Of a stretch of 64,000 bases of DNA, positions 37,851 through 46,830 are shown in pieces. A model generated the notes under the pieces. That model saw only the letters and a program-made list of their open reading frames with translations. It was not told the origin of the DNA and ran no database searches. This stretch comes from Candidatus Aminicenantes bacterium. Lineage in GTDB: Bacteria > Acidobacteriota > Aminicenantia > Aminicenantales > Saccharicenantaceae. The stretch lies in NCBI GenBank assembly GCA_037447475.1, contig JBBIGP010000004.1, positions 7,713 through 71,712 on the forward strand, given 5' to 3'. Position 1 is the first letter of the stretch. Each line of letters opens with the position of its first letter. Made by a program: the position numbers and the translations under genes.

Positions 37851-40034
37851 ATGGCCGGACGCGTCGTCTACAATGAGGGCGCAGGGGATGACATGCCCGA
37901 CTTCTACGTCTATCCCAAGACGGGCGATCCGTTCACCGTGCCGCTGAAGCCCGGCAAGATCACCATCGGCCGGGCGCCGACGAACGACCTCGTCCTTTCC
38001 GACCAGTTCAGCTCGGGATGTCACGCCTCCGTCTATCCGACGACAAGCGGATTCGTCCTTCTCGATCACGGCAGCAAGAACGGCACGTTCGTCAACGGCA
38101 AGAAGGTCACGGGGGAGATCCTCCTGGCCCGGGGGGACGAGATCCTCATCGGCTCGACGAGGATCTACTTCGACCGGGAGTTCCAGAGCAGCATCGAGAT
38201 GGTCGAGGGGACGACCTTCACCCACAGCTCGAACACCATCATCCAGGTCAAGGACATCCTGAAGAAGGCCCCCACGGCCGGCGACTACAGGACGCCCGGA
38301 GGGGAGCTCGACCTGGGGAAGCTCCAGCAGGAGCAGAAGATGATCGCGGTCATGGGGGAGGTCAGTCAGGCCCTCATCTACCACATGCCCCTCGACAAGC
38401 TGCTCAACCACATCATGGACGTTCTCATCCAATACCTGCCCATGGACCGGGGCGTCCTGATGCTCAAGGACCCGGCGACGGGCGAGCTCGCCCACAAGGT
38501 CGTCCGCGTCCAGAGCGGGTCCCTGAGGACGCAGAACATCGCCATCAGCAAGACCATCGTCCAGACCGCCGTCGAGAAGAACTCGGCCATCCTGCTGTCC
38601 GACATCCGGTCGGACGAGAGGTTCGGCGGCCAGGCCAGCGTCATCCAGGCCCAGATCCATTCGGCCATGTGCATCCCCCTCTGGAACAACCAGAACATTC
38701 TCGGGCTCATCTACGCCGACCGGGCCTCCCTCGTCGAGCAGTTCACGGAAGACGATCTGAAGCTGCTGACCCTGCTCGCCAACCTGGCCGCGGTCAAGAT
38801 CGAGAACGCCCGGCTCTACGAGAATTCCCTCAAAATGGAGCAGATGGAGCGCGAGATGGCGATGGCCGTCCAGATCCAGAAGAACTTCCTGCCCCGGGGG
38901 AACCCGTGGTTCGAACCCTACGACGTCAGCGGCAGCATGCGGGCCTGCCACCACGTCGGCGGGGACTACTACGATTTTCTGCCCGAGGCCGACGACCGGC
39001 TGGGCATCGTCATCGCCGACGTCTCGGGGACGGGGGTCAGCGCGGCCCTCCTCATGGCCAACCTGAGGGGGGCCCTGACCGAGAAGTTCCCGGTCACGCC
39101 GGACCTGGGCGAGCTGGTCGCCAAGCTCAACGACTTCGTCCATTCGAGCTCGGACAGCCATTGCTTCATTTCTTTTTTCCTGGCCGTCCTGGACCGCGCC
39201 CGGGACAGGCTGACCTACGTCAATGCCGGCCACAACCCCCCCCTGCTCGCGGACGATCGCGGCCGGATCAGCCGGCTCGAGAGCACGGGTCTCTGTCTCG
39301 GCATGTTCCCGGCCCGGGCCTACGAGCAGCGGACGATCGACCTCGGGCCGGGGGACGTGCTGTGCCTCTACACGGACGGGATCGTCGAGGGCCGGAACAA
39401 GGGCGGGGAGGAATTCGGGGAGGAGAGGCTCGCGGGGATCCTCCGGTCCGCCGCGGCCATGCCGGCCCGGGGGATCATGGAAAGGATCTACGAGGAGGTC
39501 CTCGCCTTCACGGACTGCTCCGCGGCCGGCGACGACATGACCCTCGTCGTCGTCCGGAAGAACCCGCGGCGGGAGGACGGCGAACGGTCTTCGACGGAAA
39601 GGGACGTGCGGGAGATCCGGGTCCCCGCCGCTCTCGAAGCCGTCGACCGCGTCAGGGAGTTCCTCCGGGCCTACATGGGCGAGCAACGGGTCCCCGACGA
39701 GGAGGCCCTGGCCGTCGAGCTCTCGCTCCACGAGATCTGCGTCAACATCGCGATGTACGCCTACTCCGGGGGTCCGGCGGGAGAGATGGCCGTCCGGATC
39801 TGGAACGATGACGGCATGCTGTTCCTCGAGATCCGCGACCGGGGCGTCCCCTTCGACCCCGCGGGAAAGCCGGACCCCGACCTTCTCGTCAAGGTCCGCC
39901 GCGGGCAGCGGGGCGGATTAGGCGTCTTTTTCTTCAAGACCCTCATGGACGGCTTCACTTACCGCCGGGAGAACGGGGAGAACGTCCTGACCGTCCGCAA
40001 GCGGATCCCGCCCCGGCCCGCTCCGGTTCAGTAG
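37851..40034 (+). CDS. FHA - GAF - PP2C(SpoIIE/RsbU-like phosphatase) - HATPase_c(RsbW-like anti-sigma kinase) four-domain partner-switching protein
   Basis: FHA: ITIGRAPTNDLVLSDQFSSGCHASVY...GSKNGTFVNGKKV; GAF region ~aa 170-330; PP2C motifs GGDYYDF, IADVSGTGVSAALLMANLRGAL, YVNAGHNPPLL, LYTDGIVEG; C-terminal ATPase ...ELSLHEICVNIAMYAY...GMLFLEIRDRGVPFDP. Confidence 0.8.
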   Translation: MAGRVVYNEGAGDDMPDFYVYPKTGDPFTVPLKPGKITIGRAPTNDLVLSDQFSSGCHASVYPTTSGFVLLDHGSKNGTFVNGKKVTGEILLARGDEILIGSTRIYFDREFQSSIEMVEGTTFTHSSNTIIQVKDILKKAPTAGDYRTPGGELDLGKLQQEQKMIAVMGEVSQALIYHMPLDKLLNHIMDVLIQYLPMDRGVLMLKDPATGELAHKVVRVQSGSLRTQNIAISKTIVQTAVEKNSAILLSDIRSDERFGGQASVIQAQIHSAMCIPLWNNQNILGLIYADRASLVEQFTEDDLKLLTLLANLAAVKIENARLYENSLKMEQMEREMAMAVQIQKNFLPRGNPWFEPYDVSGSMRACHHVGGDYYDFLPEADDRLGIVIADVSGTGVSAALLMANLRGALTEKFPVTPDLGELVAKLNDFVHSSSDSHCFISFFLAVLDRARDRLTYVNAGHNPPLLADDRGRISRLESTGLCLGMFPARAYEQRTIDLGPGDVLCLYTDGIVEGRNKGGEEFGEERLAGILRSAAAMPARGIMERIYEEVLAFTDCSAAGDDMTLVVVRKNPRREDGERSSTERDVREIRVPAALEAVDRVREFLRAYMGEQRVPDEEALAVELSLHEICVNIAMYAYSGGPAGEMAVRIWNDDGMLFLEIRDRGVPFDPAGKPDPDLLVKVRRGQRGGLGVFFFKTLMDGFTYRRENGENVLTVRKRIPPRPAPVQ

Positions 40035-40921
40035 AGGACCTTCTCTTCTCCGTTCATCCTGACGAGCCTGTCGATCTCCTTGAGGACGAGGTCCCTGCGG
40101 ACGAGCACGGCCTTGATCTCCTCGTCCGTGAGGTACTCGCCCACGACGCCCTTGACGGCCTCGGCATCGAGCGTCTTGATCTTGTCGACGATGGCCCGGG
40201 GCAGCTCGCTCATGAGCTTGGGGCCTTCCTTGTGCTTTTCCGTGTAGATCAGGCTCTTCGTGAACTTCCCCGAGGCCCGGAAGGACCGGGAGTGGTCGAT
40301 GAGGATCATCCGCCAGTCGGGCTGGGTGATGAGGATCTGGTTCTGGTGGCGGTCCTCGTTGGCGATGAGATTGTCCCAGAACCGCTGCAGGTAGGTCGCC
40401 CGGTTCCAATAATAGACCCTGATGGGCGGGACCTTGAGGTTCTTCTGCTCCTTGTCGCGGAGCGTGATGCAGTCCTCGACCCAGAGCTGGCAGGACCCGC
40501 GCTCCGCGCGGTAACGTCGCTCGACGGTCGGGGGGACCATGTTGAGCCCGAGGTGCTTGTCGAGGAGATAGGCGGCGACCTCGTAGTTCCAACCCTCCCA
40601 ATACCCGCCCATCCGGCCTTGGGCGTTCTTCCACAGGGCCCGGTGGGACACGTCGTCCTTTTTCAGGGTCAGGACCCAGGGGCTGGTCACGGATTCCCTT
40701 CCTGTCATCTGCCGGCTGTCGACGACCTCGGCCGTCCTCAGGAACTCCTCCCACTTCTCCCGCTCGGCCAGGTCTTCGGGCGTGAACTGGGCGGCGCCGA
40801 GTCGCGGGGCCGGCCCTCCGGGGCCGTTGGCCGGGCTCATGGCGTGGCCCAGGAGGACCACGGACAAGACGCCGGCGGCGATGGCGCCGGACACGATGGA
40901 TACGATCGCGGACTTTTTCAT
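40028..40921 (-). CDS. secreted protein with atypical kinase-like domain (HipA/CtkA/PI3-4K-like motifs), paralog 1
   Basis: Signal peptide/anchor MKKSAIVSIVSGAIAAGVLSVVLL; conserved EEFLRTAE, WKN, YEVAAYLLDKHLGLNMVPPT, catalytic-loop-like ANEDRHQNQIL (NxDxHxxN), metal-binding-like ILIDHSRSF; shares ~45% identity by eye with the next gene. Confidence 0.5.
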   Translation of the reverse strand: MKKSAIVSIVSGAIAAGVLSVVLLGHAMSPANGPGGPAPRLGAAQFTPEDLAEREKWEEFLRTAEVVDSRQMTGRESVTSPWVLTLKKDDVSHRALWKNAQGRMGGYWEGWNYEVAAYLLDKHLGLNMVPPTVERRYRAERGSCQLWVEDCITLRDKEQKNLKVPPIRVYYWNRATYLQRFWDNLIANEDRHQNQILITQPDWRMILIDHSRSFRASGKFTKSLIYTEKHKEGPKLMSELPRAIVDKIKTLDAEAVKGVVGEYLTDEEIKAVLVRRDLVLKEIDRLVRMNGEEKVLY

Positions 40922-40970: not shown

Positions 40971-41807
40971 TCAGTAGAGGACGGCGGCTTCGCCCTGTTC
41001 CCGGACCATCTGGCGGATCTCCTTGAGCAGGAGGTCGCGGCGGGCCAGTACGGCCCGGATCTCCTCGTCCGTGAGGTACTCTCCCACAGCGGCCCGGATG
41101 GTCTCGAACGATAACTCCCGGATCCGGTCCACGAACGAGCGTGGCAGGCGCCGGAAGAGGAACGGCGTCCCCTGCATGGACGTCTGCAGGCCCCGCTGTC
41201 CGAACATCAGCCTTTTCGTGTGCTCCTTCGTCGCGCGGAACGACCGCGAGTGGTCGATGAGGATCATCCGCCAGTCCTCGGTGTAGAGGATGTTCTGCTG
41301 GTTCCGGTCCTCGTTGGCGATGAGACTGTCCCAGGCGCGGGTCAGCCACTTCATCTTTTCCGTGTGTTCCGTCACGGAGTCGGGAATGCGGATGTTGTTG
41401 TCGACGATCTTTTCCAGGCTGTGCTTGTTCTCGGCCCAGAGGACGAGGGCGCCGCTCTGTCCCTGGAACTCCCGCTCGACGGCCGGTGGGATCATGTTCA
41501 AGCCGATGAGCTTGTCGAGGCGGTAGGCGGCGATCTCGAATCGCCAGCCCTCGTAGAAGCCCAGCTGCATGCCGCTCGGGTTCTTCCAGCAGGCCGCCGC
41601 CTCGCGGTCTCCCTGTTTGAGAGTGAGCTTGAAGGGCTTGGTCACCCCTTCGCCGATCTCCTTGAAGCCGGCGATCTCGGCCGTCCTCAGGAACTCCTCG
41701 AACGCTTCTCTCGCGGCGATCTCGTCCGGGGTGAATTGCCCGAACAGGGCGGCCGGAGCCGCTATGAGCAGGAGAAGGCAAACGGCGGCCCGAAACGCAC
41801 ATATCAT
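40971..41807 (-). CDS. secreted protein with atypical kinase-like domain, paralog 2
   Basis: Trimmed to MICAFRAAVCLLLLIAAPAALFGQ signal peptide; same motifs: EEFLRTAE, WKN, FEIAAYRLDKLIGLNMIPPA, ANEDRNQQNIL, ILIDHSRSF, C-term ...GEYLTDEEIRAVLARRDLLLKEI...VLY. Confidence 0.5.
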   Translation of the reverse strand: MICAFRAAVCLLLLIAAPAALFGQFTPDEIAAREAFEEFLRTAEIAGFKEIGEGVTKPFKLTLKQGDREAAACWKNPSGMQLGFYEGWRFEIAAYRLDKLIGLNMIPPAVEREFQGQSGALVLWAENKHSLEKIVDNNIRIPDSVTEHTEKMKWLTRAWDSLIANEDRNQQNILYTEDWRMILIDHSRSFRATKEHTKRLMFGQRGLQTSMQGTPFLFRRLPRSFVDRIRELSFETIRAAVGEYLTDEEIRAVLARRDLLLKEIRQMVREQGEAAVLY

Positions 41808-41915
41808 CGAATCTTCCTCCGATGGCACCCTGATGCTCCTATCATAAGGAGGGTCAAGGGGGAAATCAAGCCCAGCCCGAGCCCCGTTTCCGCTTCGTGT
41901 GGCCGTCGAGGGGGA

Positions 41916-43406
41916 TCAGGCTTTGGCAAGGGCATCCTGGGCGGTCTTCCGCCTTCGGTAGGCGGGAATGATCTTGAGACAGATGCCGATCAGGACGGCC
42001 ACGGCGAAGACGTTGAGGAGAGCGTAGTTTTCGATGTGAAGTCCGAGAAGGTGGACGCCGATGAGGACGGCCAGCGCTGAAAGCGTGTCTCCCCCCCTGA
42101 CAAAGAAGGTGTCGATAGCCGCCTTGGCTTTATACTTCTCCTCCCGCTTGGTGACCAGGAACAGCGCGGCCTTGGTCGTATTCTGAAGGGAATAGTCGGT
42201 GCCGTTCTCGAAGGCCTTGACCCAGCGGACGAGCACGAGAACGGCTCCGAAGGAAATCAGCGTGTAGCCGCCCAGGGCGATGAGAGGAAGGAAGAGCAAG
42301 GCCCCTCCCACGCCGATCCACTTGAAGATGCGCGAGACCAGGAAGAGCTGGATGATGAGGGCGATCAGATTGGTCAGGAACTGGTAGTTCATGAATGCGC
42401 TGTGAATGGCCTTGCTCTCCGTTCCGGCGGGCAAGGCCGGGGACGCCGCCGGGCGCTTCCGATCGGCTCCATCGTCGGGAAGCGGGACGAGCCGGCCCCG
42501 CGGGCCTCCCGCGGCTCCATCGGCTATCGACTCCCTGACCGTGACGGCGGTGATGATATATTCCCCGGTCGCATTGATGAAATTATAGAGGCCGATCATG
42601 GCCGCGATGAGAAGAAGGTAGCGGCTCTTGAAGATCAGCCGGAACCCTCCTCCCGCTCTTAGCGGCTGTTCACTGGCGACGCTTTCCTCCTCGGCCTTGG
42701 CCAGGCCCTTTTCGCGGGCCTCGCGGGTGTCCCGGACGGCCCGGTTGTGGATATGCCAGGCCAAGGCGATGCAGAGCAGCAGGATGAGGCCCGCGATGAG
42801 CATGAGCTCGTATTCCCAGTTCTCCCCCAGGATATCCCTCAACCGCTTCATGATCGGCAAGGTCGCGACGAGCCATCCGAGCGTGGCTCCCAGGGCGACG
42901 AGCGGAAACGTGCGCTTTCCGACCTCGTCCGAATAGAGGTCGTTCGCGAAGCCCCAGAACTGGGCGATCACGAAATAATTGAATATGCCGATCCAGATGA
43001 AGAACATGATCCCCATGGGCTTGACGGCCATCCCGCTCAAGTTGAGGAAATAGAAGACGACGAGGTTGGAGATGAAGAATGATGTTGTCCAAGTGATAAG
43101 GATATGCCGAGGCACCCTGGAAGCGAGGCGACTGAATGCCTTGATGACGAAGATGAAGAGAACGGCTTGGGCCCCGCTCAGGTAGCTCTTGACTTGAGGG
43201 GAACCCTGGTCAACAAGGAGAAGCGACTCGCGCAGCGGCTTGAGGATGTAGTAGGCCAGAAGCAAAAGAAAGATGTTGAGGGCGAGCAGGAGGGCCTTCA
43301 GGGCTTCCCCCTTGCGGACGTCGGCGAACAGCCTGAGGAAGCCGTAGCCGATGTTCGAAGTAGCGCCGCCCGACGGCGGGATCCCCCCGCGGATTCTATC
43401 CCCCAT
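41916..43406 (-). CDS. TLC/AAA-family ATP:ADP antiporter-like nucleotide transporter (Npt/Tlc homologue)
   Basis: 496 aa, ~12 TM; TLC signature LKALLLALNIFLLLLAYYILKPLRESLLLV; internal Gly/Pro/Ala-rich ~40-aa loop insertion (…ADGAAGGPRGRLVPLPDDGADRKRPAASPALPAGTE…). Confidence 0.65.
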   Translation of the reverse strand: MGDRIRGGIPPSGGATSNIGYGFLRLFADVRKGEALKALLLALNIFLLLLAYYILKPLRESLLLVDQGSPQVKSYLSGAQAVLFIFVIKAFSRLASRVPRHILITWTTSFFISNLVVFYFLNLSGMAVKPMGIMFFIWIGIFNYFVIAQFWGFANDLYSDEVGKRTFPLVALGATLGWLVATLPIMKRLRDILGENWEYELMLIAGLILLLCIALAWHIHNRAVRDTREAREKGLAKAEEESVASEQPLRAGGGFRLIFKSRYLLLIAAMIGLYNFINATGEYIITAVTVRESIADGAAGGPRGRLVPLPDDGADRKRPAASPALPAGTESKAIHSAFMNYQFLTNLIALIIQLFLVSRIFKWIGVGGALLFLPLIALGGYTLISFGAVLVLVRWVKAFENGTDYSLQNTTKAALFLVTKREEKYKAKAAIDTFFVRGGDTLSALAVLIGVHLLGLHIENYALLNVFAVAVLIGICLKIIPAYRRRKTAQDALAKA

Positions 43407-43427: not shown

Positions 43428-45311
43428 TCAGATCAGGACATGGCCCTCCCCGCGGGTCTCGATGAGCCTTTTGATGATCCGGATGATGAGGTCACGGCGG
43501 GAATGGAGGGCTTCGATCTCTTCTTTGTCGAGATGGGGCGACAGAAGGAGGAAGACCGCCTTCCTGTCCCACCCCAGGAGCTTGCCGAAGAGGTCTTTCG
43601 AGCACTTGCGGATCTCGCATCCGGGCGGAAGGCTCTTCCGGGGCGCGAAGGCTTCCGAGAAATCGACGCGGTAGATCCGCTGGTCGTCGCGGCTGACGAG
43701 CACGTCCCGGTCGTTGTCGCACTCTTCGTGGACGAGCATCTCGAAGAGCCGCAGGTCTTCCCGGTCCCGCTCGAAGGCCGCGGGCCGGGCCGGGGCGAGC
43801 TTCTGCTCCTTCCAGTCGAATTCCGAGATGGCGTTCTCGACGAAGACCTGCAGGGAGCCGGGGATCCCGTCGATCTCCCGCTCGATGACAGGCGGGACGA
43901 ACGCCAGCTTGAGGTACTTGGCGAGGTCGTAAGCGGCCAGCTCGTAGCGGTAGCTGTCGGGGAGCGGGTGAGGGCGGCGCCGGTCGATGTACTTGAACAT
44001 GGCCCTGCGCGTGACGCCGTCCTTCTCGAGGGTCACCCGCCAAGGCTCCGTCCGCCCGGCGGCGGCCGTCTTGCGGGCCATGGCCTTGGCCGTCCTGAGG
44101 AACTCCTCGACGGCTTTGGCCGAAGCGAGCGGTTCCGGGCGGGTGACGACCGGAGAGCTGCGGGCGGCGGCCTCTTCCGTCTCGCCCCAGAGCTCGAACC
44201 GTCCGTCCTCGTAGATGAGGGCCGCGGGCAGGCCGCCGTAAAACTCGGAGATCCCGGTGTCGATGACGAAGACCTTGCCGCCGAAGCGGCTGACGGTCTC
44301 GAGGGTCGCGATGGGGCTCGACCCGGCGTTGTTGACAGGCAGATAGCTGTGGCCGACGACGATGGCCCGGGCCCCGAGGTTGTCCAGGATACGGTCGACC
44401 TCGGCCTGAGCGGTGCCTTCGATATGGGTCGTCAGGCCCCGGAACCAGACCGGGCCGTCCGGCGCGTAGACGAGCTTGGGCTTGAAGGGCCTAAAATAGC
44501 GATGAGGGGACTTGATCCTCTCCCGGAACTCCTCGAGCTCCTTTCTCATGAGGTCGTTCGTCTCGCGCAACGGCCGTTTCGAGTAGTGCTCGTTGACGCC
44601 CCCGTGGAGGTAGACGACGTCGTTGATCTTGATGATGGTGTTCTTCGTCAGCAGCCAGCTTCCGTACAGGTCGTTGAAGGCGTTGACATAGGCCAGGCGG
44701 GCCTCCCGGTCGTGGCGGATGACACGCTGCCAGTAGGCCCGCAGAGCTTCGTCCGTCCCGAGATCCAGGCCCTCGGCCTCGGCCTGGCGGCGCCGGTCGC
44801 GGGGGAGCCTGGCGATGTAGGCCGCTTCCAGGGACCTGCGGACGCCGTCCGGGAGGAAGGAGACGAACTGCTCGGGCGTGACGTACTGAGGATAGTCCAG
44901 GGCGATGCCGGTGATGTTCATCTCCTCGTGGTTGCCGATGAGGACGTGGACCAAGCCGCCGGCCGCCTCGGCTTCCTTTTCGAGGCGCATGAGAAGGTCC
45001 ATGATCTTCCTGGCGTCGGGGCCGCGGTCCATGATGTCGCCGAGCTGGACGAGGTGGGCCGTCCCGGCGGTCCATCGGAGGTCCGCGTCGATGACGCCGA
45101 CCTCGGGGTTCGAGAGGATGAAGACGAACCGGTCGTAGTCGCCGTGCAGGTCGCCGACGGCGACGACGCGGCCGACGCCGGACCAGGCATAGGGGATCTC
45201 GGAGGCGGGAGAGAGCGGGACATGGAGCAGGATGAGCAGGAGAAGAATAAACAGACCTTTGAGGGGCCGACATGGGGCCTGTCGCGACCATCCCCTGCTG
45301 CGTTCGGGCAT
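43428..45311 (-). CDS. secreted calcineurin-like metallophosphoesterase fused to divergent atypical-kinase-like domain (paralog 3)
   Basis: Signal peptide ...LFILLLLILLHVPLSPA; MPE motifs VVAVGDLHGDYDRF, LVQLGDIMDRGPDARKIM, VLIGNHEEMN, ...IVVGHS...; C-terminal 250 aa aligns with paralogs 1/2 (EEFLRTAK, YELAAYDLAKYLKLAFVPP, ...GHVLI) but catalytic-loop region altered (HEECDNDRDVLV; YRVDFSEAF). Confidence 0.6.
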   Translation of the reverse strand: MPERSRGWSRQAPCRPLKGLFILLLLILLHVPLSPASEIPYAWSGVGRVVAVGDLHGDYDRFVFILSNPEVGVIDADLRWTAGTAHLVQLGDIMDRGPDARKIMDLLMRLEKEAEAAGGLVHVLIGNHEEMNITGIALDYPQYVTPEQFVSFLPDGVRRSLEAAYIARLPRDRRRQAEAEGLDLGTDEALRAYWQRVIRHDREARLAYVNAFNDLYGSWLLTKNTIIKINDVVYLHGGVNEHYSKRPLRETNDLMRKELEEFRERIKSPHRYFRPFKPKLVYAPDGPVWFRGLTTHIEGTAQAEVDRILDNLGARAIVVGHSYLPVNNAGSSPIATLETVSRFGGKVFVIDTGISEFYGGLPAALIYEDGRFELWGETEEAAARSSPVVTRPEPLASAKAVEEFLRTAKAMARKTAAAGRTEPWRVTLEKDGVTRRAMFKYIDRRRPHPLPDSYRYELAAYDLAKYLKLAFVPPVIEREIDGIPGSLQVFVENAISEFDWKEQKLAPARPAAFERDREDLRLFEMLVHEECDNDRDVLVSRDDQRIYRVDFSEAFAPRKSLPPGCEIRKCSKDLFGKLLGWDRKAVFLLLSPHLDKEEIEALHSRRDLIIRIIKRLIETRGEGHVLI

Positions 45312-45477
45312 CTGTATCCCTTATACACGTTTTTGTGGTGGGAATCAACGGCTTGGCCGTCCACGATGCGTGTCATCGATAGACACCACGGGACCGGTCG
45401 TTTCCCATCAGGGGAGTGGAGCCGAAAGAATTGACTCCGCCGCCGGGCCCCTGATATCCTGAGGCGCGCGGGCAAGG

Positions 45478-46830
45478 GTGACGAAAGGACGGTGGACCGT
45501 GCGTTTCGGATCGTTCGTTGGTGTCATAGGGCTTGTGGGAATGTTTGTCGTTCTTGCCGGGGTTTCCGGCTGCAGGGGAGGCGGGCGGCCGGTCCCCTCC
45601 GAGGATGTCGCTGTGACGGTCAAGCCGGGCGTCGAGGTCTTCCTCGAGAGATATGTCGGGCTCGTGGAGGGCAAGCGCGTCGGCCTGATCACCAACCCGA
45701 CGGGAGTGGATGGGCGCCTGCGGTCGACGGTGGACCTGTTCGCCGGGAGCCCCGATATCGACCTGGTCGCGCTCTATGGCCCCGAACACGGCGTCAGGGG
45801 GAACGCGCAAGCCGGCGAATACGTGCCGTTCTACATCGACGACAAGTACGGTTTGCCCGTTTTCAGCCTCTACGGACAGTCGTTCAAGCCCCCGCCGGGC
45901 ATGCTCAAGGACATCGACGAGCACATGCGGTCGTTCGACACGGACATCGCCGGGAAGGTCCCCGAGAAAGCCATGGTCGAGAGCGTCGACGTCCTCGTCT
46001 TCGACGTCCAGGACGTGGGGACGAGGGTCTACACCTATATCGCCACCATGGCTTACGCGATGCAGGCGGCGGCCGAGAGCGGCATCGAGGTCATCGTCCT
46101 GGACCGCCCGAACCCCGTCAACGGCGTGGACATGGAGGGGCCGATCCTGGAGTATCCCGCATTCAGCTCGTTCGTCGGGCTCTATCCCGTCCCTGAGCGC
46201 TTCGGCATGACGATGGGCGAGCTGGCCCTGCTCTTCAACGACAGGTTCCTGGAGAAGAAGGCCCGTCTGACGGTCGTCGCCATGGAGGGCTGGAAGAGGC
46301 CGATGTGGTTCGACGATACGGGACTGCCCTGGATCATCCCTTCGCCCAACATGCCGACCCTCGACACGGCCACGGTCTATCCGGGCCAGGTCTATATCGA
46401 GGGGACGAACATGTCGGAAGGCCGGGGTACGACCCGGCCGTTCGAGCTGTTCGGAGCGCCTTGGATCGACGGCCACGAGCTGGCGAAAAGGCTCAACGGG
46501 CTCGGCTTGCCGGGCGTCGTCTTCCGGGAGACCTGGTTCACGCCGTGGTTCTCCAAGTTCCAAGGGCAGCTCTGCGGAGGCTGCCAGGTCCATGTCACGG
46601 ACAGGGAGGCATACCGGTCGTTCGGGACCGCGCTGCACGTCATCAAGACGGTCCGGGACATGTATCCGGACAAGTTCGCCTTCCATGCGGACTACTTCGA
46701 CAAGGTCATGGGGACGGACAAGGTCCGCCGGGCTCTCGAAGCGGGGGAGACCGTCCCAGCGATCCTCGAGAGACTGGAGCCCGGGCTGGCCGCCTTCGCC
46801 GCGCTCCGCCGCCCGTATCTGCTCTATTAG
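45478..46830 (+). CDS. DUF1343 family protein (exo-beta-N-acetylmuramidase NamZ-like), lipoprotein
   Basis: 450 aa; lipobox VLAGVSGC; conserved ...VGLITNPTGVD...VALYGPEHGVRG...VLVFDVQDVGTRVYTYI...LDRPNPVNG... Confidence 0.75.
   Translation: MTKGRWTVRFGSFVGVIGLVGMFVVLAGVSGCRGGGRPVPSEDVAVTVKPGVEVFLERYVGLVEGKRVGLITNPTGVDGRLRSTVDLFAGSPDIDLVALYGPEHGVRGNAQAGEYVPFYIDDKYGLPVFSLYGQSFKPPPGMLKDIDEHMRSFDTDIAGKVPEKAMVESVDVLVFDVQDVGTRVYTYIATMAYAMQAAAESGIEVIVLDRPNPVNGVDMEGPILEYPAFSSFVGLYPVPERFGMTMGELALLFNDRFLEKKARLTVVAMEGWKRPMWFDDTGLPWIIPSPNMPTLDTATVYPGQVYIEGTNMSEGRGTTRPFELFGAPWIDGHELAKRLNGLGLPGVVFRETWFTPWFSKFQGQLCGGCQVHVTDREAYRSFGTALHVIKTVRDMYPDKFAFHADYFDKVMGTDKVRRALEAGETVPAILERLEPGLAAFAALRRPYLLY

Follow-up and report, generated by a model that had tools for sequence, protein, structure and literature searches.

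Several enzymes combine opposing phosphoryl-transfer activities in one polypeptide, among them HPr kinase/phosphorylase, AceK, PFK-2/FBPase-2 and bacterial Pnkp, which contains a calcineurin-like phosphoesterase domain. All of these are cytoplasmic, none is exported, and their kinase folds (P-loop or others) are unrelated to the one described here. In metazoans, the secretory kinase Fam20C is paired with the pseudokinase Fam20A. Helicobacter pylori CtkA, HipA and type II PI4K belong to the same structural neighbourhood, and have neither a phosphatase fusion nor a link to a TLC transporter. Among phosphatases, the prototype of the Shewanella-like (Shelph/SLP) clade is the cold-active protein-tyrosine phosphatase PPI/CAPTPase of Shewanella (PDB 1v73, 2z72), a single-domain enzyme. 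This clade is recognized by the bacterial-type (I/L/V)D(S/T)G in place of SAPNY and by extra residues inserted between GNHE and H(A/G)G; the substrate ranges of bacterial PPP-family phosphatases are broad and not reliably protein-specific (PMC535813). Lastly, genes for NTT-HEAT and NTT-HEAT + cNBD transporters occur in free-living bacteria (Major, Embley & Williams 2017, PMC5381601); that work describes a small cNMP-binding gene, and gives no function for NTT-HEAT and no link to a phosphatase or kinase.

Here we analysed a 64,000-nucleotide stretch of a Candidatus Aminicenantes genome (contig JBBIGP010000004.1; hereafter, the window) that encodes a phosphatase joined to a kinase-fold domain (PKL-C). 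The evidence supports well a description of this product as a probably exported two-domain protein: an active-looking phosphatase, a flexible linker of ~25 residues and a pseudokinase (C-type) of the Fam20/PI4KII fold. Unlike PPI/CAPTPase, the phosphatase is followed by a kinase-fold domain at its C-terminus and is encoded within a kinase/transporter cluster; unlike the bifunctional kinase/phosphatases, the fusion has a kinase half that is predicted to be inactive; and the phosphatase tether of PKL-C has no counterpart in the Fam20 system, whose hosts are animals rather than Acidobacteriota. Literature on secreted or periplasmic bacterial kinases, bacterial Fam20 homologs, SLP–kinase fusions and follow-ups of NTT-HEAT yielded no description of the PKL family.

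The four-gene cluster and its proposed role

The fusion gene heads a minus-strand cluster of four genes, with the TLC transporter gene 21 nt downstream; an earlier note on this DNA had already placed it first in a minus-strand operon, directly before the TLC transporter. The features are as follows (coordinates are those of the window):

45312..45477 (no strand), divergent intergenic region of 166 bp between the fusion gene and namZ, holding a Shine-Dalgarno-like AAGGGA
43428..45311 (−), whole fusion ORF, 627 aa: signal peptide, Shewanella-like PPP phosphatase, linker and Fam20/PI4KII-fold PKL-C
45204..45311 (−), Sec signal peptide predicted by a heuristic, aa 1–36 (MPERSRGWSRQAPCRPLKGLFILLLLILLHVPLSPA, followed by SE)
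44196..45197 (−), Shewanella-like (Shelph/SLP) PPP-family phosphatase domain, aa 39–372 (1v73/2z72, Pfam Metallophos, intact motifs)
44121..44195 (−), interdomain linker, aa 373–397 (ELWGETEEAAARSSPVVTRPEPLAS), of low model confidence and at the position of the stop in split loci
43431..44120 (−), PKL-C, Fam20/PI4KII-like kinase-fold domain, aa 398–627, predicted pseudokinase
43704..43727 (−), degenerate catalytic loop EECDNDRD, aa 529–536, from comparison with PKL-A/B
43656..43664 (−), DFS, aa 550–552, with the DFG-equivalent metal-binding Asp, from alignment of the paralog types
41916..43406 (−), TLC/NTT-family membrane transporter (PF03219), 496 aa
40971..41828 (−), PKL-A, standalone paralog, predicted exported, 285 aa from GTG, loop NEDRNQQN plus IDHS
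40028..40921 (−), PKL-B, standalone paralog, predicted exported or membrane-anchored, 297 aa, loop NEDRHQNQ plus IDHS

The ATG of the fusion ORF lies 5 nt past the AAGGGA sequence, and PKL-A probably starts at an ATG at 41807 (MICAF...) rather than at the GTG. The cluster promoter presumably lies within 45312..45477, where a promoter scan returned no convincing minus-strand sigma-70-like site upstream of the fusion gene; terminator-like matches were at background level. A NamZ gene and a gene for an FHA-GAF-SpoIIE-HATPase protein are conserved nearby in related genomes; we rejected them as members of the system and regard them as local synteny, given their opposite strand and the restriction of NamZ to the close clade.

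A homology search recovered >120 full-length homologs of the fusion protein at 54–87% identity, and two other contigs encode a protein identical to it (P0001). Its N-terminus contains five Lys/Arg residues, then GLFILLLLILL, then SPA/SE, with the cut placed after residue 36 by a hand-made hydropathy/AXA check; the basic–hydrophobic–SPAAD pattern is kept in 40 homologs, and the structure model shows an isolated helix there (residues 17–29). By hydropathy heuristic only, similar N-termini are found in PKL-A, PKL-B, the split C-type genes and 23 of 28 distant fusions. This simple heuristic is the sole basis on which the fusion protein is called probably exported by a Sec-type route, and it agrees with the earlier proposal that both halves leave the cytoplasm. 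In the structure model, linker residues 383–393 have pLDDT <50 and the full-length pTM is 0.56 despite both domains being well modelled, which together indicate a flexible tether between the two domains.

Our preferred reading, to which we assign about an even chance, is that phosphorylation runs as a cycle outside the cytoplasm, with the fusion protein as targeted eraser, PKL-A and PKL-B as writers and the TLC carrier handling nucleotides. PKL-A and PKL-B would phosphorylate an envelope substrate (Ser/Thr/Tyr of a protein, or a hydroxyl of a glycan or lipid), the TLC/NTT-family carrier would fuel them by swapping cytoplasmic ATP for periplasmic ADP, and the fusion protein would erase the phosphorylation, so that the cycle outside the cytoplasmic membrane would be reversible. 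PKL-C, which shares the kinases' fold and whose pocket has become more basic (R420, R444, R446), would bring the phosphatase to the phosphorylated product or to PKL-A and PKL-B themselves, in the way that Fam20A docks on Fam20C. Against this reading, the periplasm is generally held to be ATP-free, and ATP can leak through porins. To our knowledge, all characterised NTTs import nucleotides into a cell or organelle, and we know of none that exports ATP from a free-living bacterium.

If this reading is correct, a conserved cluster of catalytically intact exported kinases, a dedicated relative of ATP/ADP carriers and a matching phosphatase would constitute direct genetic evidence of energised envelope phosphorylation. 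For the first time, the NTT and NTT-HEAT transporters found in free-living bacteria would also have a function that can be put to the test, a question left open in PMC5381601.

Phosphatase domain and transporter

The phosphatase domain is matched by the Shewanella phosphatase structures 1v73, 2z72 and 2zbm at E-values of 7e-35 to 2e-34, the match to PPI/CAPTPase (E = 7e-35) taking in the catalytic domain in both its halves; the next PPP in PDB, the Rhizobiales-like phosphatase 5vjv, reaches only 3.5e-4. Pfam Metallophos matches this half of the protein at 1e-10. The metallophosphoesterase motifs that the earlier note had read in the N-terminal half (GDLHGD, GDIMDRGPD, GNHE and GHS) are present and invariant across 40 homologs. 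They are located, with two further motifs, at residues 53–57 (GDLHG), 91–97 (GDIMDRG), 126–129 (GNHE), 236–238 (HGG), 320–321 (GH) and 350–353 (IDTG), and the invariant residues comprise D54, H56, D92, R96, N127, H128, H236, H321 and D351, as well as G353. GNHE and HGG are separated by 107 residues, an interval modelled as helices (residues 146–220). The domain shares GDXHG, GDXXDRG, GNHE, HGG, GH, (I/L/V)D(S/T)G and the long GNHE–HGG insert with PPI/CAPTPase, and was assigned to the Shelph/SLP clade based on its PPP motifs, the combination of IDTG with the insert, and its closest relatives, which are of the Shewanella/Colwellia type. With every catalytic and metal-binding motif intact, its prediction as an active-looking phosphatase is well supported. 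The earlier idea that a substrate-binding pseudokinase guides a phosphodiesterase comes near our preferred reading, except that the enzyme is a PPP-type (Shewanella-like) phosphatase rather than a demonstrated phosphodiesterase.

The transporter scores 60.3 bits against PF03219 (cut-off, 21), matches the ADP,ATP carriers 9j3n and 9j3j in PDB at 1e-5, and displays 13 partly overlapping hydrophobic peaks (hydropathy, 19-residue window). Against TIGR00769, which represents characterised NTP/NDP exchangers, it scores 48.8 bits, below the cut-off of 387.2. Of 78 informative Aminicenantes loci, 62 have TLC adjoining the genes for phosphatase and PKL-C, and about 16 have no TLC next to the module; its presence there is thus not obligatory, which counts against the preferred reading. 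Thirty-one loci have exactly the gene order phosphatase/PKL-C, TLC, PKL-A, PKL-B, and a standalone PKL gene lies downstream wherever the flank allows. In about 20 Aminicenantes loci, the module is neighboured by a gene for a phytase-like/SdiA-regulated beta-propeller lipoprotein.

An alternative that we consider unlikely is that the cluster serves nucleotide or organophosphate scavenging, with TLC as importer, the exported phosphoesterase trimming nucleotides or other phosphoesters in the periplasm, and the kinase-fold proteins acting mainly as periplasmic accessories that bind or convert nucleotides for the carrier. It would fit a TLC family defined by nucleotide importers (PF03219; the ADP,ATP carriers in PDB) and the broad substrate ranges of bacterial PPPs (PMC535813), as well as neighbours such as the phytase-like/SdiA-regulated lipoprotein and, at one distant locus (L090), a Phosphodiest/ENPP-like protein. 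NCBIfam models of Ap4A hydrolases (ApaH-type) also match the phosphatase motifs, but weakly (1e-3 versus 7e-35 for the Shelph-clade protein-tyrosine phosphatase, by far the best esterase match). Moreover, the catalytic and metal-binding Asp residues of PKL-A and PKL-B are 98–100% conserved, as is the Asn in PKL-A, and these would be needless for mere binding. A phosphate donor would still be required by an extracellular kinase.

The kinase-fold domain, a predicted pseudokinase

The C-terminal ~250 residues had been taken for a third copy of a kinase-like domain, and this was borne out: the domain shares 27% identity with PKL-A and 31% with PKL-B, and an HMM of it found exactly three copies in the window. 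Its fold was identified solely by structure comparison, which places it in the Fam20-type atypical kinase fold; searches of Pfam, NCBIfam and PDB (phmmer) returned nothing above threshold for the C-domain. The Fam20C profile (PF06702) left the window domain unmatched and reached 3 of 55 relatives at E ~0.1; it was passed only by a distant tandem-PKL protein, P0243 (29.4 bits; cut-off, 26.8). Curated cut-offs were likewise not reached for PI3/PI4-kinase (PF00454) or TIGR03843 (SCO1664 family), the latter matching PKL-B at 9e-12, far under its cut-off, and all Pfam scores for the neighbourhood of CtkA, HipA and type II PI4K fell below gathering thresholds. Sequence identity to the Fam20 kinases is only 15–20%; the likeness may reflect homology or convergence of a shared ancient fold. 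The family comprises 1,329 clusters at 50% identity, has no Pfam model and is annotated only as 'metallophosphoesterase' or 'hypothetical protein'; if the preferred reading is right, it would be a large unannotated bacterial addition to the Fam20/PI4KII structural neighbourhood.

Residue frequencies come from 78 copies of the C-type, 60 of the A-type and 64 of the B-type. All A-type and 98% of B-type copies have the catalytic-loop Asp, whereas in the C-type its position is occupied by Cys (79%; C531 in the window protein), Arg (13%) or, in the remainder, Pro, Ala, Lys, Gly or a gap. Five positions further, the metal-binding residue is Asn in all A-type copies, Gln (75%) or Asn (23%) in the B-type and Asp in all C-type copies; this residue, D536, lies immediately before the strand 537–540 in the model, at the catalytic-loop Asn position of canonical kinases. 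The beta3 Lys is universal in A- and B-type copies and is Lys (83%) or Arg (16%) in the C-type. Every copy of each of the three types has the DFG-like Asp (D550). Other C-type residues are also retained, including G419/R420/T421 and R446/P447 (>92%), K/R440 and E/D457. On a tree of PKL domains, none of the 61 C-clade members sampled has the catalytic Asp, which A, B and the distant fused domains keep.

PKL-A and PKL-B thus have the active-kinase residue set of catalytic Asp and metal binders, and PKL-C does not. Because the catalytic Asp has been lost while the standalone paralogs keep canonical D..N..D motifs, and since the loss extends across orthologs with a kinase fold, we read the C-terminal domain as a predicted pseudokinase that has lost its catalytic base and kept metal- and nucleotide-binding residues. 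This differs from Fam20A, which was inactivated by a Glu-to-Gln change together with inverted ATP binding.

The same conservation of D536, D550, K/R440 and E/D457 would also fit unconventional catalysis, which counts against the eraser reading. PKL-C could then be an atypical enzyme with a relocated base or another chemistry (for example, SelO-like AMPylation or SidJ-like glutamylation), and the protein would be bifunctional. Purifying selection on active-site-like residues (these four together with G419/R420/T421 and R446/P447), precedents for active 'pseudokinases' cited in PMC7948968, and distant fusions with an apparently active kinase domain all point that way, yet we judge it quite improbable: the residue at the base position varies and is therefore no new nucleophile under conservation, 16% of copies have Arg in place of the beta3 Lys, and intact paralogs in the same cluster are the usual setting of a regulatory pseudokinase. 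C531 itself was ruled out as a new catalytic nucleophile, as its position varies within the C clade. Under the preferred reading of PKL-C as a docking pseudokinase, the clean natural split between kinase and pseudokinase, and the fused and unfused versions that occur naturally, would be useful for studying how pseudokinases target partner enzymes.

Fused, split and distant loci

Phosphatase and PKL-C form a single ORF in 40 of 79 Aminicenantes loci and two adjacent genes in the other 39, where a stop codon and a predicted signal peptide, that of the second gene, occur at the linker position. Half of the related genomes therefore encode the phosphatase and pseudokinase as separate adjacent proteins, both predicted to be exported, so the fusion would make an existing partnership covalent. 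Fused and split states require about three changes on neighbor-joining (NJ) trees of either domain, and their history may be one of fusion or of fission. The tree of all PKL domains was midpoint-rooted on the long C-type branch; under this rooting the C-type may or may not descend from fused active kinases.

The earlier note's central observation, a phosphoesterase fused to a kinase-like domain, is therefore real and conserved, with the same fusion carried as a single ORF by >100 database proteins or clusters. It is extremely improbable that the fusion is an artefact (frameshift, assembly error or mis-called start) or that the N-terminus is no export signal and the protein an ordinary cytoplasmic phosphatase: export is predicted only and one locus of the fused clade (L041) resembles a frameshifted copy, but the artefact part is effectively refuted by 40 independent genomes, the database clusters and the identical protein on independent contigs, the n–h–c signal-peptide pattern is kept in fused, split and distant versions, and the Cys residues of the mature protein occur only in the predicted exported C-domain, where C531, C565 and C570 are conserved.

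The phosphatase–kinase architecture recurs in Terriglobia, at 27–34% identity over the whole phosphatase domain, in fusions that keep an intact kinase loop (NDRNxxN...DH[ST]). The suggestion of a self-contained phosphorylation/dephosphorylation switch found no support for the window protein, whose kinase-fold domain lacks the catalytic Asp (C531); it may fit these distant fusions, which by analogy probably operate like the bifunctional kinase/phosphatases. A TLC-HEAT gene adjoins the Terriglobia-type fusion in seven of nine loci examined, and an eighth (L088) has TLC-like fragments only. The window transporter has no HEAT domain and is a HEAT-less relative of the TLC-HEAT proteins (23–27% identity).

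The module is thus a conserved gene set of Acidobacteriota that hints at ATP-driven phosphorylation outside the cytoplasm. We put forward only tentatively, and with low confidence, the wider proposal that Acidobacteriota run ATP-fuelled reversible phosphorylation outside the membrane, in which an NTT/TLC protein, of a family so far known only for import in parasites and plastids, would export ATP and take in ADP, with exported Fam20-like kinases as writers and the phosphatase–pseudokinase as eraser. That would assign a function to the NTT(-HEAT) genes of free-living bacteria and reveal in prokaryotes a counterpart, perhaps related by descent, of the Fam20 kinase/pseudokinase system that metazoans use in secretion. 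Among the distant loci, the fusion is neighboured by a Phosphodiest/ENPP-like gene in L090, and in L085 and L086 a small cNMP-binding gene also lies beside it.

The fusion protein and its two domains

The fusion gene is real and conserved, and it forms one component of a phylum-wide, uncharacterised module, represented in the window by the following genes. We hold this structural description of the fusion protein and its cluster with high confidence.

43428..45311, minus strand: fusion ORF, 627 aa, with an ATG start five bases 3' of a ribosome-binding-like AAGGGA
41916..43406, minus strand: TLC, an NTT/TLC-family membrane transporter
40971..41828, minus strand: PKL-A, a standalone paralog of the fusion C-terminal domain (C-domain, PKL-C)
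40028..40921, minus strand: PKL-B, a second standalone paralog of the C-domain

The earlier note had described a full set of phosphoesterase motifs, a third kinase-like copy at the C terminus and a TLC transporter directly after the gene. All three observations hold: the complete motif set is found in the ORF, its last ~250 residues share 27% and 31% identity with the PKL-A and PKL-B ORFs, and the transporter gene, matching PF03219 at 60.3 bits, lies 21 nt downstream. Pfam places Metallophos at residues 48–322 (E 1e-10), and an alignment of 40 homologs leaves D54, H56, D92, R96, N127, H128, H236 and H321 invariant, together with D351 and G353 of the IDTG motif; (I/L/V)D(S/T)G is the bacterial-type PPP motif (PMC535813). 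The best PDB matches, 1v73, 2z72 and 2zbm (E 7e-35 to 2e-34; residues 39–135 and 216–322), are entries of the Shewanella cold-active protein-tyrosine phosphatase, and the second-best PPP in this search of solved structures reached only 3.5e-4. Shewanella-like phosphatases carry an insert separating GNHE from H(A/G)G (PMC535813), and in the fusion protein the GNHE-to-HGG insert spans 107 residues and is helical in the model. Because the PPP motifs, the bacterial-type motif and the insert are all present, and every testable feature of the Shelph clade is found, we assign the N-terminal half on sequence grounds to the Shewanella-like (Shelph/SLP) PPP phosphatases, with an intact active site. Divergent from the fusion gene lies a homolog of the exo-beta-N-acetylmuramidase NamZ (PF07075/PF20732; window 45478–46830, plus strand), which is kept upstream in 38 of 80 loci, chiefly in the close clade.

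A profile search of the 64-kb window with an HMM of the C-domain found exactly three copies. The fusion C-domain had no Pfam match and no PDB match by phmmer, and scored only 21 bits against TIGR03843 (cut-off 172); PKL-A and PKL-B gave sub-threshold Pfam matches to PI3_PI4_kinase, HipA_2 and FAM198. Structure comparison ranked the Hydra Fam20 xylosylkinase first (18.5), followed by zebrafish Fam20C1 (18.2), the C. elegans Golgi casein kinase (17.2), PI4K type II alpha (16.5), human Fam20C and the secreted H. pylori kinase CtkA (14.5 each), HipA (12.0), actin-fragmin kinase (11.6) and CotH (10.3). The Foldseek ranking agrees, with Fam20C, Fam20A and Fam20B at the top and PI4KII next. As modelled, the C-domain adopts an atypical, Fam20/PI4KII-type protein-kinase-like fold; its fold is alike, but its sequence lies outside the Pfam Fam20C family and likewise failed to place it in PI3_PI4_kinase or TIGR03843. 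Two related database proteins carry two kinase-fold domains each in tandem: P0243 (671 aa; locus L086, 7001–9016), in which residues 204–298 exceed the Pfam Fam20C gathering score (29.4 versus 26.8 bits), and P0452 (1038 aa), which matches Metallophos as well as PI3_PI4_kinase, HipA_2 and Fam20C.

Searching 5.8 billion proteins yielded >120 full-length homologs of the fusion protein (~620 aa, 54–87% identity), which are named as MAG proteins of Candidatus Aminicenantes or Acidobacteriota and whose only annotations are 'metallophosphoesterase' or 'hypothetical protein'; an identical protein, with the same neighbours, was found on an independent contig. We also scanned one genome per species, finding relatives in 230 genomes, and examined 80 loci. 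Phosphatase and PKL-C share a single uninterrupted ORF in 40 of these, so that the fusion recurs well beyond the window and is no artefact; in 39 each has a gene of its own, the two lying side by side and mostly out of frame with each other, and the second gene starts with its own signal peptide (for example MRIATNPILILLLFLVLGSSLFVWSQTP... at L077 8058..8852). Neighbour-joining trees of the phosphatase and of the kinase-like domain each call for about three changes between fused and split states (the main fused clade, a second fused clade comprising L032 and L034–L037, and L041), and the two proteins are therefore a conserved pair, joined or separated more than once. Such repeated joining and separation is a classic signature of a phosphatase and a kinase-like protein that probably work together. 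L041 (7001–8774) is the sole 'split' locus within the main fused clade (58% identity); its halves lie in different frames, the second without its own signal peptide, and the split looks like a frameshift or pseudogene. The AlphaFold model of the whole protein agrees: each domain is modelled reasonably well, yet the pTM reaches only 0.56 and pLDDT is <50 at residues 383–393, which indicates that the two domains are flexibly linked and do not form one rigid unit.

Substituted catalytic residues in the phosphatase-linked domain

The loci yielded 78 C-type domains (fused or phosphatase-adjacent), 60 of A-type and 64 of B-type, the latter two types corresponding to PKL-A and PKL-B, and we aligned them all.

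Residues at active-site positions of the three domain types (position in the fusion protein: A-type; B-type; C-type)
Beta3 Lys (440): K 100%; K 100%; K 83%, R 16%
AlphaC Glu (457): E 100%; E 100%; E 70%, D 29%
Catalytic-loop Asp (531): D 100%; D 98%; C 79%, R 13%
Five residues on (536): N 100%; Q 75%, N 23%; D 100%
DFG-equivalent Asp (550): D 100%; D 100%; D 100%

In the model of the fusion protein a strand directly follows D536, and D550 comes after the next strand, a placement that matches the geometry of the catalytic-loop Asn and DFG Asp of canonical kinases and puts C531 at the catalytic-base position. A tree of all PKL domains resolves the C-type as its own clade, with the Asp missing in 61 of 61 sampled members. 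Within this clade residue 531 may also be Pro, Ala, Lys, Gly or a gap, and this variation rules out C531 as a conserved new nucleophile. The C-type has gained conserved R420, R444, R446 and P447 at positions held by Val or Gly in A and B, and its conserved Cys 531, 565 and 570 are the sole cysteines of the mature fusion protein. The fused C-type domain is a predicted pseudokinase, and the standalone PKL-A and PKL-B are not; PKL-C would transfer no phosphate and would still bind metal, nucleotide or an anionic ligand.

Gene context in Aminicenantes and Terriglobia

The exact order phosphatase/PKL-C, TLC, PKL-A, PKL-B occurs in 31 Aminicenantes loci; 62 of 78 informative loci include a TLC gene, and at least one standalone PKL lies downstream wherever the flank is long enough. 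A simple hydropathy/AXA check gave each of the window's three kinase-fold proteins a signal-peptide-like N-terminus. In about 20 loci an additional gene on the opposite strand separates TLC from PKL-A (for example L032 10340–11176 and L077 8891–9874, both minus strand) and encodes a beta-propeller lipoprotein of 278–327 aa (Pfam SdiA-regulated 1e-14, Phytase-like 9.5e-8); the window has no such gene.

Several features vary around this core. Nine loci (L010, L046, L055, L061, L063, L066–L068 and L074) hold only phosphatase, PKL-C and PKL-B, and the joint absence of TLC and PKL-A suggests that these are gained or lost as a unit. Further divergent TLC-like paralogs (22–34% identity to the window TLC) lie on the minus strand a few kb upstream of the phosphatase gene in L030, L032, L051, L052, L058, L060, L062, L064, L071–L073, L076 and L079, and are seen in many split-clade loci. 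The 87-nt TLC/PKL-A spacer of the window contains a sigma-70-like pair, TTGATT-17-TATGAT (41841–41869, minus strand), a consensus match that could serve as an internal promoter for both standalone kinase genes. A 727-aa FHA-GAF-SpoIIE(PP2C)-HATPase_c_2 protein (37851–40034, plus strand) converges on the cluster end; 47 of 80 loci have a homolog no more than 7 kb from the module, its placement and orientation differing between loci, and this proximity may be mere local synteny.

An exhaustive phmmer search with the C-domain against 1.84 billion cluster representatives returned 1329 clusters with E <= 1e-3, of which 781 reached E <= 1e-10. Many matches (31–37% identity) are proteins of 590–900 aa with the domain C-terminal; nine of ten long relatives tested have an N-terminal Metallophos, and the N-terminal domain of these distant fusions aligns with the entire window phosphatase (27–34% identity, E 1e-24 to 1e-50). 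Those relatives that carry a name belong to Terriglobia, Terriglobales, Acidiferrales or 'Acidobacteria bacterium', and signal-peptide-like N-termini were seen in 23 of 28 distant fusions. Their kinase domain scores nearer to the window PKL-A and PKL-B than to PKL-C, and the canonical NDRNxxN...DH[ST] residues are found in 27 of 35 long representatives.

The gene context of the distant fusions is the strongest linkage evidence. Transporter genes with a HEAT domain (TLC-HEAT, 880–926 aa) were located as follows.

L082/L083, 9510–12281: TLC-HEAT
L084, 9217–11997: TLC-HEAT
L089, 8546–11317: TLC-HEAT
L090, 8161–10926: TLC-HEAT
L091, 8236–10995: TLC-HEAT
L085, 3805–6570: TLC-HEAT
L086, 1286–3928: TLC-HEAT

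In the first five the TLC-HEAT gene (919–926 aa) directly follows the fusion; L085 has the order TLC-HEAT, cNMP-binding protein, fusion, standalone PKL, and in L086 a split phosphatase and tandem PKL are closely preceded by TLC-HEAT and a small cNMP-binding gene. L088 has only TLC-like fragments beside the fusion, and L087, on a short contig, is without a TLC gene. The NTT-HEAT architecture (TLC-HEAT with or without a cNBD gene) is widespread in free-living bacteria, and Major, Embley & Williams gave it no function (PMC5381601). Because TLC-HEAT genes adjoin the Terriglobia-type fusions, the pairing of a phosphatase-kinase, predicted to be exported, with a TLC-family carrier holds phylum-wide, despite altered gene order and domain composition. 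Both activities appear to reside in one protein in Terriglobia; in Aminicenantes, kinase function is predicted to lie in the standalone paralogs, the phosphatase-linked copy having turned non-catalytic.

A candidate extracytoplasmic phosphorylation cycle

Full-text literature searches found no description of bacterial Fam20-like exported kinases, of a phosphatase-kinase-fold fusion of this kind or of a link between an NTT gene and a kinase, and a 2022 kinome survey took FAM20 as metazoa-specific (PMC9758233). The folds are known, but the architecture and the system are undescribed, and an ATP-fuelled extracytoplasmic phosphorylation system, a reading that would be categorically new, is conceivable.

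We tentatively propose an extracytoplasmic phosphorylation cycle with the fusion protein as eraser, a mechanism for which, taken whole, our belief and doubt are nearly balanced. The fusion protein, PKL-A and PKL-B would act outside the cytoplasmic membrane, where the two kinases would phosphorylate an envelope substrate, fed by a TLC carrier that swaps cytoplasmic ATP for ADP; nucleotide carriers likewise supply the lumen in which Fam20C works. The fusion protein would take the phosphate off again, its pseudokinase domain docking it onto either the phospho-substrate or the kinases, much as the secreted pseudokinase Fam20A binds Fam20C and activates it (PMC7948968). Counting against this mechanism, TLC is missing beside the module in ~16 loci. 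The periplasm is moreover thought to be without ATP, characterised NTTs import nucleotides, and we know of no NTT acting as an ATP exporter in a free-living bacterium.

That known transport direction would fit nucleotide or organophosphate scavenging with TLC as importer, as would ENPP-like and phytase-like neighbours at some loci and weak Ap4A-hydrolase-type matches; we nevertheless consider scavenging unlikely, given that PKL-A and PKL-B, both predicted to be exported, strictly conserve their catalytic residues and that the esterase is allied to the Shelph clade. Since D536, D550 and the G-R-T loop are strongly conserved, PKL-C could be an unconventional enzyme and not a dead domain, which the variable residue at the base position makes quite improbable. 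It is highly improbable that the fusion is an artefact or the protein cytoplasmic, as single-ORF homologs, the identical protein on an independent contig and signal-peptide-like N-termini in fused, split and distant versions all contradict this.
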